Program-made: the position numbers and the translations under genes
NCBI GenBank assembly: GCA_951406725.2
Contig: OX597821.1
Span: forward strand, 43,958,001 to 44,022,000
DNA: 64,000 nt
Reading direction: 5' to 3'
Source: Octopus vulgaris
Taxonomy: Eukaryota
The notes under the pieces: model-generated
Told to the model about the DNA's origin: nothing
Seen by the model: only the letters and a program-made list of their open reading frames with translations
Databases searched by the model: none
In this document: piece after piece, positions 2,521 to 19,764 of the stretch
Numbering within the stretch: position 1 is the first letter of the stretch
How the letters are laid out: the number at the start of each line of letters is the position of its first letter

Positions 2521-3300
2521 GGAAAGTGATGTAGTGTCAGCTATTTATGAAGAGAGCCTAAACTCAGTCACAGACCCAGCCCCGGATGTATTCCTAGCAA
2601 TCCTCTTGAAGAAATGCAAAGGGGCTCTGGTAAGACCCCTATAGATTTTCTTCTATCCATAAAGGAGATGGCAGAGTGGATGCTAAATATTATAGGCCTG
2701 TCTCTATAAACTTACATATCAGCAAATTCATGGAGCGCATTGTCAGGAAGAAGCTGATCATATTCTTAGAAGATAATGACTTGATCCCTGATACCCAGTA
2801 TGGCTTCTACACAGCCAACACTGCTTCTGCTTCTATAGTGCTTCTGCAGCACTATGACTGGGTGTTAAAACAACTAAGGAATCACTCAAATGTGGATGTG
2901 ATATAAATCGATTTTGCAGAGGCCTTTGATAAGGTTGTACATTGGATAGTATGTAACAAACTACGGAGACACGAAATAGTCGGAAAACTGGCAGAGTGAT
3001 TACATGACTTCTTAAGAGACAGAAGCTCTGGCAGCCAATGAGACCCTCTCCAAGGAGTCAGTAATAGCGAGTGGAGTGACTCAGGGAACTGTCTTGGGAC
3101 CGCTGCTGTTTATGGTAGCTTTTTCAGATATGCCATCAATTACACAGACAGCCACACTTACGACACAAAAGTAGTACAATTAGTCAAGGAGTCTATCGAT
3201 GCTAATCTTCTACAGTAAAATCTTGATGCCATATAAAAACGGGCTGAACAAAACAACATGCCATTTAATGCAGGAAAATTCCAAGCCCTCTACTATCAGC
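2520..3300 (+). mobile_element. Decayed CR1/L2-type LINE reverse transcriptase fragment
   Basis: Interrupted frames give PDVFLAILLKKCKGALVRPL, YRPVSINLHISKFMERIV...QYGF, VDVI*IDFAEAFDKVVH, SGVTQGTVLGPLLF and WAEQNNMPFNAGKF, i.e. non-LTR RT motifs with stops and frameshifts. Confidence 0.85.
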
Positions 3301-3511
3301 TAGCTTATGCTAAGATGCGGAGGCAAAGATACCTCCTTATGTTTACAAGGGGGAGATAAACATAAGGACACAGGAAATGTGTCCTTATGGAAGCGGTGCT
3401 GCTTCCTAGGGCTAAATAGCAGTAGTATTATTCCCTTCGTGGGACTGTCATATTAAGTTGACAGCATACAACTACTTTATCGTATCACTACTACATAAAT
3501 CTCTCAGTCGC

Positions 3512-3547
<36 letters not shown>

Positions 3548-4329
3548 GGGTGGCTAACAAGCAACACTTACACACACACACACACACACACACATACACA
3601 CGCACCCTCACCCCACATATATATATATATACAGTATATAAATACAGAGACACACACGCATATACTCACATATTCATGTACGCATGTATGTATGTTTGTC
3701 TTCATTTATGTATAAACGGTGTAGAATTTTAGTAAATCTAATATACAGTCTTATAACATTTCTCATTCCCCTACCTCTGATGAAACACTCTATTCTGATG
3801 TCATCTCCTGGAATAACAATTTCAATCTATCTTCCAAATTATTAATGAGTTGATTCTATCGTCGGTTTCGTACCTGATATTCTTGGTCATATTCATTATT
3901 AGCATTCAGAGAGATGGCTGTCTGCCACGGAAACCCAATAAAGATTACGGGTCTTTCTATATAAACTATATATTGAGTGTATGTGACATATCTGGCGCTC
4001 ATTTATTGTTTATAATACCAGGCTTTAGTTGGGCTCTGTATTGTTATCTTTTAACTGGCGATGCGATATCTCTTCGTTCATGTCACATGTTCTTATCTCA
4101 GACTGTTTAGTTAGAGGTCAGATAGCGACAGAGATATGGAACTCACTAGCAAATTATTAACTGTTAAATAGGTTACGGATTGGCGGTTAATGTTGAATCA
4201 TGTGAAAATGGCTTCAAGTTTTAATCAACTCGGGAGAGCATTGGTCATTGTCAGGCTGAAGAAGCTCTAAAATACATTTGATTCGTTTCTGCCTTGATGA
4301 TTTTAATAGACAAAACGTAATGACGGAGA

Positions 4330-4472
4330 AAGATGAAGGAGAAGGAGGGAGAGAGGGACGGAGAGAGAAAGAAAGAAGTAAGATTGTGAGAGAATAAGTG
4401 AAAGAAAGAGAAAAAGCGAATGAGATAGATATAAATAAAGCGATAGAGAGAGAGAGAGAGAGAGAGATAGAA

Positions 4473-4542
<70 letters not shown>

Positions 4543-4730
4543 AGGGGGGGGGGACTACATAGTGAGATCATTAGTACATGAAAGATAGAGAAAAATTGAA
4601 TGAGATGAAGAAAGTGCAAGAGAAAGAGAGAGTGCGGAAGAAAGAAAGAAAGAGTGACAGACTTAGAGGGAGGACATCGAGGTCACGAGAGAGAAAAAGT
4701 GAATGAGACTGAGAGAGAAAGAGAGAGATC
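4330..4730. repeat. Purine-rich (GA)n/(GACA)n/(GATA)n low-complexity tract
   Basis: Read directly. Confidence 0.9.
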
Positions 4731-6002
4731 GTGAAGGGGAATGGGTCGTAACCAGTCTTCCAGGAACCTCTTACCATTCTTCAATGAACACATCAGCACA
4801 CTCTTGTGAATATTACAGTTTTCATTATTTATTTATAATTTGCATAATTCTGAGAGGAATTGTCTGTGTGTCTTGAACAGCAGTCTTCATTGCTCTCTCA
4901 TAGACTCAGTGATAAAAGATACTGACACAACTACCTACTGCGGTGAGTTCTACTGACACACCGTACCACTGCAAACCAATTTACAACTGTGTAGAAGTGA
5001 AATAGCTCAATGAAACGACTACAGTTTACAAGTTCATAAGTGAGTTCGAATTCACGTCAGGCTGTTTTTTTTTCCATCCGTGTGTTTTGAGCAATCCAAC
5101 TTTCTTCAGATTCGTTCCACGTCACCAAATTGTCGAGAATTGACAACATATTCCACCCTGTCAAAGACCCACGAATGTATTTATCTGACATGTTCTTAGC
5201 ACCATGGAACAACCCTCTCATTGCTCAGGAACATGATCATTTATTATAATCACACACAAAACAAGCACCCACACACCTACAAACACACATGTATATGCTT
5301 ACAGATATATGGGATGTTTCAAAGGTGACCATCTGTTTAATAAGCCAATAATTTTAGCCTTTCAGAGAAAAACAAACTGCTGGAATATATTAACTTCTGA
5401 TACCAAAATAATGGAATGAGGATATAATTTATTCATTTAAAATATTGATTTAATCCTTCTAAAATGGTTTTAGGCATCAGACTTGAAGAATTCAAATTAT
5501 TCTATGGAGATGATGACTGTACAATACCAGCACTTGTCTTGGGTTTTCATGAGGTCAAATAATCTAGTTATGGTGATTACAGTGTGTAACATGATTTTTG
5601 TCCTTGAGCAGCATCTGTTATTTCCTATTTGCTTGTGAAAAATGGCTAATGTTCAGTCAAACTCCAAAGAGTCCTTCTCAATACATGGGTATAATGCTCC
5701 CCCCCCCCCACTTGTCTTGCTCATGATCAGTGATGCACATGTTATCAGTCACTAAGGGACATGCTTAAGTGGTTTAGACCAAGCAACTAACAAGCAAATC
5801 TGTGGTATTGAGCAGAATATTTGCTATAATGATATTTCTGCATTAGCAGTCTCCTCGCTGAATCTGTCTGAAATGCAATGGAAAATAGGTCAGTTCCAAA
5901 ACATTAATGTCCGTGTCACAAAAGTTTGAAGGGAATAGTAGTCATTTCCTTTGATTTCTAGATAGAAGCAAATAGGAAATAACACTTACTGACCATAGAC
6001 AA

Positions 6003-6734: not shown

Positions 6735-7290
6735 GATGCTGAGCTGGCAGAATCGTTAGCACACCGGGTGAAATGCTTGGCGGTATTTCGTCTGTCTTTA
6801 TGTTCTGAGTTCAAATTCCGCCGAAGTCGACTTTGCCTTTCATCCTTTCGGGGTCGATAAATTAAGTACCAGTTATGCACTGGGGTCGATGTAATCGACT
6901 TAATTCGTTTGTCTGTGCTTGTTTGTCCTCTCTGTGTTTAGCCCCTTGTGGGTAGTAAAGAAATAGGTATTTCGTCTGCCGTTACGTTCTGAGTTCAAAT
7001 TCCGCCGAAGCCAACTTTGTCTTTCATCCTTTCGGGGTCGATTAAATAAGTACCAGTTACGCACTGGGGTCGATATAATCGACTTAATCCGTTTGTCTGT
7101 CCTTGTTTGTCCCCTCTGTGTGTAGCCCCTTGTGGGTAGTAAAGAAATAGTTATTTCTTCCGTCTTTACTTCTGAGTTCAAATTTCGCTTCCATCCTTTC
7201 GGGCACCAGTTGAGTCTTGGGGTCGATGTAATCGACTGTTCTCTCCCCCTACAAAAAAATTCAGGTCTTGTGTCTTTAGGAGAAAAAATT
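6733..7290 (+). mobile_element. tRNA-derived SINE (family A, Meta-SINE-like core), head plus three tandem bodies
   Basis: Box A-like gagctggcagaatcgttagc, box B-like gagttcaaattcc and core gactttgcctttcatcctttcggggtcgataaattaagtaccag. The body recurs at ~6783, ~6967 and ~7150. Confidence 0.85.
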
Positions 7291-16080: not shown

Positions 16081-16226
16081 AACTTTCCAGAACCGAGTTG
16101 CCATATAGCGGGCGATTTACATAGCAAAATCCTTCCTTTGATGTTCGCCGCCGTTAGTTGATATGCGTCAGATAATGCTGATTGGCCGGTAAACATTAAG
16201 ATGGGCGTTCTGTTCCCCCAAGTAAC
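16081..16226. promoter_or_regulatory. CpG-rich 146-bp module, copy 1 (possible promoter/enhancer)
   Basis: 3 mismatches versus 19619-19764. Contains attgg (CCAAT), tgcgtca (CRE-like), atttacat (octamer-like) and gttgccat (RFX-like half site). Function is inferred only. Confidence 0.35.
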
Positions 16227-17042: not shown

Positions 17043-17094
<52 letters not shown>

Positions 17095-17313
17095 TCAATT
17101 TAGGGTAGCAAAAAATTCAATAGAAATTTATCGCTACCAGCGGCCTAGTGGAAAAGAGAAAATAGTCAAAGACTAAAATATATAAATATAACAATTTAGG
17201 AATGGCCTTAACAGGCCATTCGTCCACCAGAGAGAGCAGCCAGAACTCAAACCGCCAAGCAGTAGTAATTCAGAAATTAGGTGAAAATTTAAAAACGTTT
17301 ACCCTAATTCATC

Positions 17314-17410
17314 TTTTAGACGATGCATCGTTTCTGTGTTTTTAATGATAAACTAGCTTAAATAAATTAAATTAAGCTAATCTACCATAGGTCACACTTC
17401 ATCAGTAAAA
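17314..17410 (-). ncRNA. Type I hammerhead ribozyme (array copy, minus strand)
   Basis: Reverse complement: tttta CTGATGA a gtgt...acac a GAAA cgatgcatcg TC taaaa. Confidence 0.85.
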
Positions 17411-18220
17411 AACCTGGGAGAGACAAATATACACGAGGCGTCTGTATCAATGCCTCTGGAATATCTGTCTTAAAATTTTCAAGACCAACGTGTTCGCGCC
17501 AACCCATCAGCAGTAAATATAAACTGCCGATTCAATCTCAGAATTAGTCAGAAAATTATCAATTAATCAATTTAGGGTAGCAAAATTCAATAGAAATTTA
17601 TCGCTACCAGAGGCCTAGTGGAAAAGAGAAAATAGTCAAAGACTAAAATATATAAATATAACAATTTAGGAATGGCCTTAACAGGCCATTCGTCCACCAG
17701 AGAGAGAGCAGCCAGAACTCAAACCGCCAAGCAGTAGTAGTTCAGAAATTAGGTGAAAATTTTAAAACGTTTACCCTAATTCATCTTTTAGACGATGCAT
17801 CGCTTCTGTGTTTTTAATTATAAACTAGCTTATGCATCGTCTAAAAGATGAATTAGGGTAAACGATTTTAAATTTTCACCTAATTTCTGAATTACTACTG
17901 CTTGGCGGTTTGAGTTCTGGCTGCCTCTCTGGTGGACGAATGGCCTGTTAAGGCCATTCCTAAATTGTTATATTTATATATTTTAGTCTTTGACTATTTT
18001 CTCTTTTCCACTAGGCCGCTGGTAGCGATAAATTTCTATTGAATTTTTTGCTACCCTAAATTGATTAATTGATAATTTTCTGACTAATTCTGAGATTGAA
18101 TCGGCAGTTTATATTTACTGCTGATGGGTTGGCGCGAACACGTTGGTCTTGAAAATTTTAAGACAGATATTCCGGAGGCATTGATACAGACGCCTCGTGT
18201 ATATTTGTCTCTCCCAGGTT

Positions 18221-18317
18221 TTTTACTGATGAAGTGTGACCTATGGTAGATTAGCTGAATTTAATTTAATTAAGCTAGTTTATCATTAAAAACACAGAAA
18301 CGATGCATCGTCTAAAA
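18221..18317 (+). ncRNA. Type I hammerhead ribozyme (array copy)
   Basis: Stem I tttta/taaaa; CTGATGA 18226-18232; stem II gtgt/acac extended by atggtagattagct/agctagtttatcat; GAAA 18297-18300; palindromic stem III cgatgcatcg; GTC triplet, predicted cleavage after 18312. Confidence 0.88.
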
Positions 18318-18692
18318 CATGAATTAGGGTAAACTTTTTTAAATTTTCACCTAATTTCTGAATTACTACTGCTTGGCGGTTTGAGTTCTGGCTGCTCTCT
18401 CTGGTGGACGAATGGCCTGTTAAGGCCATTCCTAAATTGTTATATTTATATATTTTAGTCTTTGACTATTTTCTCTTTTCCACTAGGCCGCTGGTAGCGA
18501 TAAATTTCTATTGAATTTTTTGCTACCCTAAATTGATTAATTGATAAGTTTCTGACTAATTCTGAGATTGAATCGGCAGTTTATATTTACTGCTGATGGG
18601 TTGGCGCGAACACGTTGGTCTTGAAAATTTTAAGACAGATATTCCAGAGGCATTGATACAGACACCTCGTGTATATTTGTCTCTCCCAGGTT

Positions 18693-18791
18693 TTTTACTG
18701 ATGAAGTGTGACCTATGGTAGATTAGCTTACTTTTTAATTTAATTAAGCTAGTTTATCATTAAAAACACAGAAACGATGCATCGTCTAAAA
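18693..18791 (+). ncRNA. Type I hammerhead ribozyme (array copy)
   Basis: Same architecture: CTGATGA 18698-18704, GAAA 18771-18774, predicted cleavage after 18786. Confidence 0.88.
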
Positions 18792-18988
18792 GATGAATTA
18801 GGGTAAACGTTTTTAAATTTTCACCTAATTTCTGAATTACTACTGCTTGGCGGTTTGAGTTCTGGCTGCTCTCTCTGGTGGACGAATGGCCTGTTAAGGC
18901 CATTCCTAAATTGTTATATATATATATATATTATAATAAACAGGTTATGTATATTTTATGTACTGGTCTTATATTAGACTGAAGAACA

Positions 18989-19218
18989 AGGCAGCGAGCT
19001 GGCAGAATCGTTAGCACACCGGACAAAGATGCTTCGTGACATTTCGTCCGTCATTACGTTCTGAGTTCAAATTCTGCCGAGGTTGACTTTGTTTTTCATC
19101 CTTCTAAGGACGATGAAATAAGTACCAATTGAACACTGGGGTCGATGTGATCGAGACCTTCATCCCTGCAAAAAGAAAAAAGATTTCAAGCCTTGTACCT
19201 ATAACTGAAAGGATTCTA
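18989..19218 (+). mobile_element. tRNA-derived SINE family A
   Basis: ggcagcgagctggcagaatcgttagcacaccgg...gagttcaaattctgccgaggttgactttg...tcatcc...aagtaccaa...ggggtcgatg. Confidence 0.85.
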
Positions 19219-19618: not shown

Positions 19619-19764
19619 AACTTTCCAGAACCGAGTTGCCATATTGCGGGCGATTTACATAGCAAAATCCTTCCTTTGATGTTCGCCGCCGTTAGTTGAT
19701 ATGCGTCAGATAATGCTGATTGGCCGGTAAACATTAAGATGGGCGGTCTGTTCTCCCAAGTAAC
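19619..19764. promoter_or_regulatory. CpG-rich 146-bp module, copy 2
   Basis: Direct repeat of 16081-16226 with 3 mismatches. Confidence 0.35.

Follow-up and report, generated by a model that had tools for sequence, protein, structure and literature searches.

A hammerhead-bearing, protein-free repeat family in Octopus vulgaris whose insertions suggest Penelope-type priming at two sites

Our analysis of a 64,000-nucleotide stretch of the Octopus vulgaris genome (the window; contig OX597821.1) revealed that positions 17091-18918 are one insertion of a short repeated element between two (TA)n tracts, with two diverging arms and not a simple tandem arrangement. One arm is inverted and copies of this element terminate at two fixed sites, both of which suggest a tie to Penelope-type priming. 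We consider it probable, at roughly two chances in three, that the element is a protein-free hammerhead repeat moved by a borrowed Penelope-like reverse transcriptase (RT) and endonuclease, which would copy a predicted circular monomer from two sites. The evidence comes from the layout of the insertion, from a census of ends at 145 loci, from the conservation of the hammerhead and from the distribution of rare alleles within and between loci.

Layout of the insertion

The arms were laid out by blastn of the reference unit (18313-18786) against the window (Table 1). TRF reported a period of 472 bp (2.3 copies at 17832-18927, score 2106) and the cut-to-cut spacings are 471 and 474 nt, which bears out the repeated monomer of about 472 nt described in an initial annotation of this DNA. 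The plus arm consists of a 10-nt remnant, two full units of 471 and 474 nt and unit positions 1 to ~131. The minus arm, when read from 17832 down to 17091, holds unit positions 433-474, a full unit (~472 nt) and positions 1-229, and the left end of the locus is thus of the type named B below and the right end of type A. The whole of 17091-17832, being the unit on the opposite strand, is absent from the text of the initial annotation, and the minus-strand hammerhead at 17314-17410 had been missed with it. Three cleavage sites had been proposed, of which those at 18312 and 18786 belong to complete motifs. The third, at 17841, is the inversion-junction remnant of 10 nt, consisting of the final ten bases of a stem III with the triplet and without an upstream CUGAUGA or GAAA, and therefore a single monomer (18313-18786) rather than two could come from the plus arm. 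This is the sole monomer at the locus that is flanked by two complete hammerheads. In the truncated minus-strand motif at 17786-17832 the 5′ half is absent and GAAA is changed to GAAG; its site lies at 17791.

Table 1. Features of the insertion and its target tracts, in window positions.
Feature	Positions	Strand	Basis
(TA)n target tract, left, 23 perfect units	17046..17091	.	TRF
Inverted arm, 5′-truncated, 3′ end = site B	17091..17832	-	blastn of unit, architecture table
Tail of ~98 nt between end A and end B, left end only	17091..17187	-	end mapping
Complete type I hammerhead motif, predicted cut after 17319	17314..17410	-	sequence match
Truncated hammerhead, 3′ half only, non-functional	17786..17832	-	sequence, junction print
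Head-to-head inversion junction, 1 nt common to both arms	17824..17841	.	sequence, blastn
Direct arm, 3′ end = site A	17832..18918	+	TRF, blastn, architecture table
Complete type I hammerhead motif, predicted cut after 18312	18221..18317	+	sequence match
Monomer, 474 nt, no ORF, hairpin chain	18313..18786	+	ORF listing, fold
Complete type I hammerhead motif, predicted cut after 18786	18693..18791	+	sequence match
Hairpin 18884-18905, then end A into (TA)n	18884..18919	+	sequence, fold
(TA)n target tract, right	18915..18931	.	sequence

The monomer had been described as a chain of hairpins without an ORF, and both parts of this description hold: the named hairpins appear in the minimum free energy (MFE) fold (z = -5.3 against 100 shuffles), and no ATG-initiated ORF of more than 47 amino acids was found in the element, the longest having exactly this length. 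The GC content is 0.33-0.35. Both ends run into (TA)n, as expected from the proposed insertion into such tracts, and are asymmetric, unlike LTRs; the target masks any target site duplication at this locus. The fold places a hairpin at 17104-17138, within the minus-arm tail and just before end B. The hairpin before end A (helix 2) is 98.8% paired, with two-sided changes at three pairs. The exact position of end A in the window copy is ambiguous over 18914-18919.

Some further observations concern the locus and its surroundings. Read-through of the whole insertion (17091-17832 with 17832-18570) would give a double-stranded RNA of ~740 bp, which from the layout is a likely substrate for editing or silencing. 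A direct repeat of ~140 bp at 16087-16226 and 19625-19764 flanks the element, its copies lying 3.5 kb apart, and is no part of the retrozyme at other loci. An abundant short interspersed repeat, putatively the octopus SINE, has copies at 18990-19175 and 6782-7188.

Copies across the genome

The 20-nt 3′ half of the window's hammerhead has 149 exact copies in the genome, and a looser 3′-half pattern gave 808 matches as compared to 3 for a reversed control. Units of the family are 472-497 nt long and form arrays of up to 4.4 kb with up to eight full units, in which the sequence upstream of the hammerhead is another unit and not an ORF. Sister subfamilies match the window unit at 73% and 86% identity. 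Full units are 99.7% identical within loci, and between loci the identity of 67 full units averages 97.4%. The family is therefore young, as had been proposed, on the basis of this between-locus identity, but the window copy, with units that are 96.8-97.7% alike, is among the older ones. Contigs of four presumed-RNA runs, which are not recorded as RNA, cover most of the unit; in three of these runs the multicopy Neptune element is covered at least as deeply or nearly so, and the coverage is not taken as a sign of transcription, cutting or circles.

The census of ends comprises 145 loci of several subfamilies out of several hundred, a non-random sample drawn from best-hit lists and from the chromosomes listed first. 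The query for family B extended from the cut site to end A plus flank and is biased towards loci that carry this end. Repeated records of a single locus were dropped before ends were counted, as were L201 (with a junction identical to that of L191), L089 (too diverged) and L269 (a chance match), and one unrelated neighbouring fragment was excluded in each of L018 and L261. Six sister-subfamily loci (L151, L152, L155, L164, L168 and L179) were used for motifs only, the place of L151 being counted as L270 in the end census.

Two fixed ends and their pairing

Copies end at two fixed sites, located ~131 nt (A) and ~229 nt (B) after the cut and each lying just after a hairpin. Nearly all classified 3′ ends (225/228) run into (TA)n. 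The arms are inverted at 93 of the 145 loci, and 85 of these loci carry one end of each type, compared to a single B+B locus, no A+A locus and seven loci with one end elsewhere (binomial probability against 0.5, 1e-24). The tail of ~98 nt is consequently found at one end in 85 of 86 classifiable loci. The 52 loci in a single orientation end mainly at A (39 loci), with 10 ending at B and three elsewhere. Five of them have a tiny inverted stub, which shows the other end type in every case and the same type in none. We found neither a count of A+B end pairing nor a cephalopod retrozyme in the literature outside subscription journals and Repbase.

At most of the inversion junctions (n = 72) the arms overlap by 0-7 nt or are separated by a few additional bases, and the junctions are scattered over unit positions. 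In approximately seven of them, unlike at most loci, the arms begin at one unit position in an exact or near-exact fold-back (L100, L110, L159, L161, L182, L185 and L197). At L081 and L088, on the other hand, the two arms have no unit positions in common, and thus neither arm is a fold-back of the other and each was primed separately. In an internal unit at L161:1540-2036, 13 nt are duplicated precisely at site B, as if priming had restarted there.

Conservation and predicted activity of the hammerhead

A type I hammerhead in every complete unit, with a palindromic stem III and an extended stem II, had been recognized in the initial annotation. Indeed, CUGAUGA, GAAA and GUC are present in 18221-18317, 18693-18791 and 17314-17410, these three complete copies satisfy the core rule (CUGANGA, GAAA and NUH with an open helix I), each has the 12-nt palindrome, and the stem II extension measures 14-17 bp. 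Copy-to-copy variation was also said to be concentrated in the terminal loop of stem II. The differences within stem II do lie in or beside this loop, but they make up merely 3 of the 15 differences confined to a single unit of the locus, insertions uncounted. The Rfam hammerhead search that had been suggested returned no family at gathering score anywhere in the window.

In a wider set of 230 complete motifs from 103 loci, 217 have an intact core. The variable positions 7 and 17 are ones at which a hammerhead tolerates change, while the core is fixed, and the palindromic tetraloop is kept in 229 motifs. Two-sided changes between subfamilies occur in stem I, at the base of stem II and in stem III. 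Pairing was also followed across 20 units of several subfamilies, using the previously named hairpins together with stems II and III and the structure of the window copy: 13 of 59 pairs, including some in stem III and in the stem II extension, have two-sided changes, and 94.8% of cells pair compared to 23-49% with slid partners, in a shuffle control that ignores the relatedness of the units. The predicted fold is more stable for the plus strand than for the minus strand (-131.5 versus -100.7 kcal/mol). The conserved cores and two-sided stem changes indicate that the ribozyme is under selection. Compensatory changes alone do not separate cutting by monomers from cutting by dimers.

With regard to the mode of cutting, stem III is calculated at -1.0 kcal/mol as a hairpin and -18.7 kcal/mol as an intermolecular duplex, so that cutting in pairs is favoured; with a stem III of 4 bp a monomer fold is possible too. 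Efficient cutting appears disfavoured by two features. In each of the three window copies the hammerhead fold is 3.5-5.8 kcal/mol less stable than the MFE structure, and the 10.1-11.1 position, usually a G-C pair, is A.A in about 185 of 230 motifs, those of the window included; family B has A.C, a few motifs have a pair and a sister subfamily has G-C. An axolotl retrozyme has U.U at this position (PMC7229834). In vitro, one of nine predicted Xenopus retrozyme dimers cut (10.64898/2026.07.22.740005), and the activity of predicted hammerheads should therefore not be assumed.

Hammerhead-like motifs with variant cores were read by eye, without alignment, at other loci. Two Neptune-like families combine U3 and A8, and position 4 is occupied by C both in a third family and in a subfamily of the retrozyme (L064:1340-1380, L071:6300-6345, L068:5600-5650 and L246), each with a different palindromic loop 3.

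Evidence for one template molecule per insertion

Allele patterns were compared among 76 loci of family A, where an allele is called private relative to these sampled loci and some private alleles are marks of subfamilies. Twelve alleles private to one locus are carried, in both arms, by all segments that cover the site, and two of the twelve are present in all nine segments of L114. A further 87 private alleles are singletons and five occur in several but not all segments. Mixing of two young stem III subfamilies between arms was seen in none of 32 loci, where two random molecules would be expected to give about 12 mixed loci (an estimate from 56 and 19 loci); this could also reflect subfamilies active at different times. 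Cut-site junctions are intact, without evident indels, in all 241 reads, the search pattern itself requiring the stem III side. That rare alleles are fixed in the two arms alike speaks for a single RNA behind each insertion and for a bottleneck through a monomer, which was likely circular.

Not all patterns are so uniform. At L118 an allele at unit position 108 alternates unit by unit in both arms, and at L227 (position 170) in a single arm, which from the sequence would be compatible with possible two-unit circular templates. For L226, L115 and position 90 of L227, a monomer circle is a poorer explanation than local duplication or a linear multimer. Ten sites vary inside single loci between alleles that are common elsewhere.

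A candidate type of helper element

A Pfam GIY-YIG search of the genome, in which 150 of 6136 first-look candidates were scored and 50 loci compared, gave no helper with similarity to the unit: the unit profile has no similarity to the 3′ regions around these 50 loci. The sole unit match near a GIY-YIG domain is a separate old repeat fragment 1.1 kb away and was rejected as helper. A search with a 72%-identical variant returned known arrays only, and a pattern with a shorter stem II found sister subfamilies and no coding elements. The occurrence of the unit only as the pseudo-LTR (pLTR) of an ORF-bearing Penelope had been named as an observation that would speak against a retrozyme; the unit is joined to a Penelope ORF (RT plus GIY-YIG) at none of the 145 loci, the window element included. 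Penelope coding fragments were detected by tblastn near 8 of 100 loci with wide flanks, joined to the unit in none of those viewed or mapped; such proximity would be expected from a common (TA)n target.

We did identify a Neptune-like autonomous family (L061-L067) with a 781-aa ORF encoding an RT and, at its C terminus, a GIY-YIG domain. The assignment to Neptune follows the Cys-rich linker before the C-terminal GIY-YIG domain (definition in PMC8557442) and was made without a tree. The family is young, targets (TA)n and has 723 exact end motifs in the genome. Its copies end at +73 and at +107-113 from its own minimal hammerhead-like motif, which has a palindromic loop; one end of each kind is found in seven of seven head-to-head loci, with a tail of 40 nt. 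No DNA similarity to the unit was detected, and we regard this family as a candidate helper type for the retrozyme.

Two side observations were made on these elements. At L022:330-1035 a retrozyme array adjoins, at its 5′ end and without a gap, ~700 bp of Neptune-like 3′ region, which stops at the GAAA of the hammerhead-like motif of the Neptune-like element. We did not accept this as a template-switch chimera, since insertion at the TA tail of the Neptune-like element with a deletion of the target fits equally well. Furthermore, in three Neptune-like families the RT frame opens at a stretch of six or seven T that follows CCA (L064:1507-2907 and 2826-5168, L072:2836, and L093). In the 781-aa family an upstream ORF of ~466 aa overlaps the RT frame at this T run, a position suggestive of a programmed -1 frameshift, and the RT frame has its own ATG 16 codons after the run. 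A two-ORF Neptune is reported from killifish in PMC12602865, whose available text makes no mention of a frameshift.

Proposed mechanism and alternatives

The favoured course of events would be as follows. An array would be transcribed as a multimer, from which neighbouring hammerheads, paired via the palindromic stem III, are predicted to excise the monomer of ~472 nt. By analogy with the retrozymes of coral, mussel and axolotl, the monomer would then be ligated into a circle. As the footprint suggests, a Penelope-type protein would cut both strands of a (TA)n target, and synthesis would be primed at site A (~+131) for one end and at site B (~+229) for the other, presumably on the same RNA, each polymerase rounding the template for up to about seven units. 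The two cDNAs would finally be joined head to head, mostly at microhomologies of 0-7 nt. In its most specific version a protein dimer loads one ribozyme-made circle at two marked sites and primes each strand, and both polymerases roll; this we put forward tentatively, as a picture that could about as easily turn out to be wrong.

Priming by a Penelope protein at two sites might instead occur on a linear multimer that a source array gives rise to by transcription and that stays uncut, with arrays growing by local duplication and with the hammerhead as a protein-binding or 5′-end element, not a maker of circles. For the Poseidon element, uncut RNA was the main insertion substrate in vitro and cleavage was dispensable for insertion (PMC11167929). 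The other eight of the nine Xenopus dimers stayed uncut and Li et al. propose local tandem amplification (10.64898/2026.07.22.740005); the partial allele patterns in L115, L226 and L227 point in the same direction. We nevertheless regard this explanation as unlikely, considering that copying a linear multimer adds no units, that a new allele fixed in all nine segments of both arms, as in L114, would need a source homogenised earlier, and that singletons far outnumber partly shared private alleles in family A (87 versus 5). The conserved hammerhead core speaks against it as well, as do the intact cut-site junctions, with the reservation on the search pattern given above.

Two further explanations were weighed. 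The unit could be nothing else than the pLTR of an autonomous Penelope-like element of which the loci are 5′-truncated stumps, and the order of hammerhead, end A, tail and end B is indeed that of a pLTR, the Neptune 3′ region at L022 abuts an array at its GAAA, and just 145 loci were read among several hundred. What lies upstream of the hammerhead is another unit, however, in arrays of up to eight full ones, and neither the coding fragments near 8 of 100 wide-flank loci nor the 3′ regions of the GIY-YIG loci provide the expected connection, which makes this origin improbable. We give even less credence to a satellite or fold-back DNA, in which the inverted arm arose by self-priming or DNA rearrangement and the resemblance to a hammerhead is incidental or vestigial. 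Fold-backs at about 7 of 72 junctions, the self-priming that has been proposed for rotifer Penelopes (PMC3846280) and the blank Rfam result would agree with such an origin; the non-overlapping arms of L081 and L088, the A+B rule, and a variation that obeys hammerhead rules at positions 7 and 17 and in the fixed core do not. Our preferred reading remains the two-site copying of a ribozyme-derived monomer by a Penelope-like protein.

Comparison with known systems

The initial annotation's placement in a retrozyme family stands in that the element is of the non-LTR-retrozyme type and inserts into (TA)n, while neither the arm in reverse orientation nor the pair of fixed ends had been noticed. By sequence definition we consider it an ordinary non-LTR retrozyme, probably moved by Penelope-like elements. 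As in the metazoan non-LTR retrozymes described so far, ORF-less, low-GC (<50%) tandem units, each with a type I hammerhead, are dispersed as monomers to multimers and co-occur with Penelope-like elements. The unit of 472-497 nt is longer than the 350-390 nt of mussel retrozymes but inside the range of 51-972 nt given by Li et al., and it differs by its 12-nt palindromic stem III and long stem II extension. Circles have been demonstrated for the retrozymes of coral, mussel and axolotl (PMC7229834), whereas here they are predicted from sequence. Inverted arms, fixed ends and a tail, as found here, are not reported for retrozymes in the available text of PMC7229834 and 10.64898/2026.07.22.740005; the former text does not mention cephalopods, and they are not among the classes sampled according to the latter. 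The hammerhead resembles those of newt satellite and the minimal motifs of Penelope-like elements (PMC4209133) in its palindromic stem III and loop 3 and in an extra unpaired base after A9. It differs from them in a stem III of 4 bp and in the absence of G10.1-C11.1 from the window subfamily.

Penelope-like insertions have been described as 5′-truncated partial tandems with an inverted 5′ copy and a tail of 30-40 bp, often at one end only (PMC8557442, PMC3846280). The Poseidon protein cuts and extends both target strands in vitro, and its start points are two internal sites of the RNA between which the tail lies (PMC11167929). The octopus insertions share with those of endonuclease-bearing (EN+) Penelope-like elements the inverted 5′ copy, the 5′ truncation and the two 3′ ends flanking a tail. 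In contrast to these elements there is no ORF here, the tail has ~98 nt instead of 30-40, and the arms hold several identical units. The one-sided tail, a qualitative observation for Penelope-like elements (PMC3846280, PMC8557442), is counted here at 85/86.

The terms retrozyme and non-autonomous Penelope element are not alternatives, and retrozymes have already been argued to be non-autonomous Penelope derivatives (10.64898/2026.07.22.740005). If two-site priming on a circle is correct, it would account at once for the tail at one end, a long-standing puzzle, for the inverted repeats of Penelope insertions and for the way in which retrozyme arrays grow, the 472-nt unit would be a minimal substrate, and the arrays would be a genomic record of Penelope-type integration. 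The short RNA makes testable how the tandem and inverted insertions of Penelope elements originate and whether retrozyme arrays arise by rolling-circle reverse transcription. Penelope-like elements have been named the likely mobiliser of retrozymes, and mobilisation from circles has hitherto been proposed through co-occurrence and similarity (PMC7229834, 10.64898/2026.07.22.740005). The octopus family displays the Penelope footprint directly, with a near-absolute rule of one site per end that is common to an autonomous element in the same genome, and its allele patterns point to one monomeric template per insertion.
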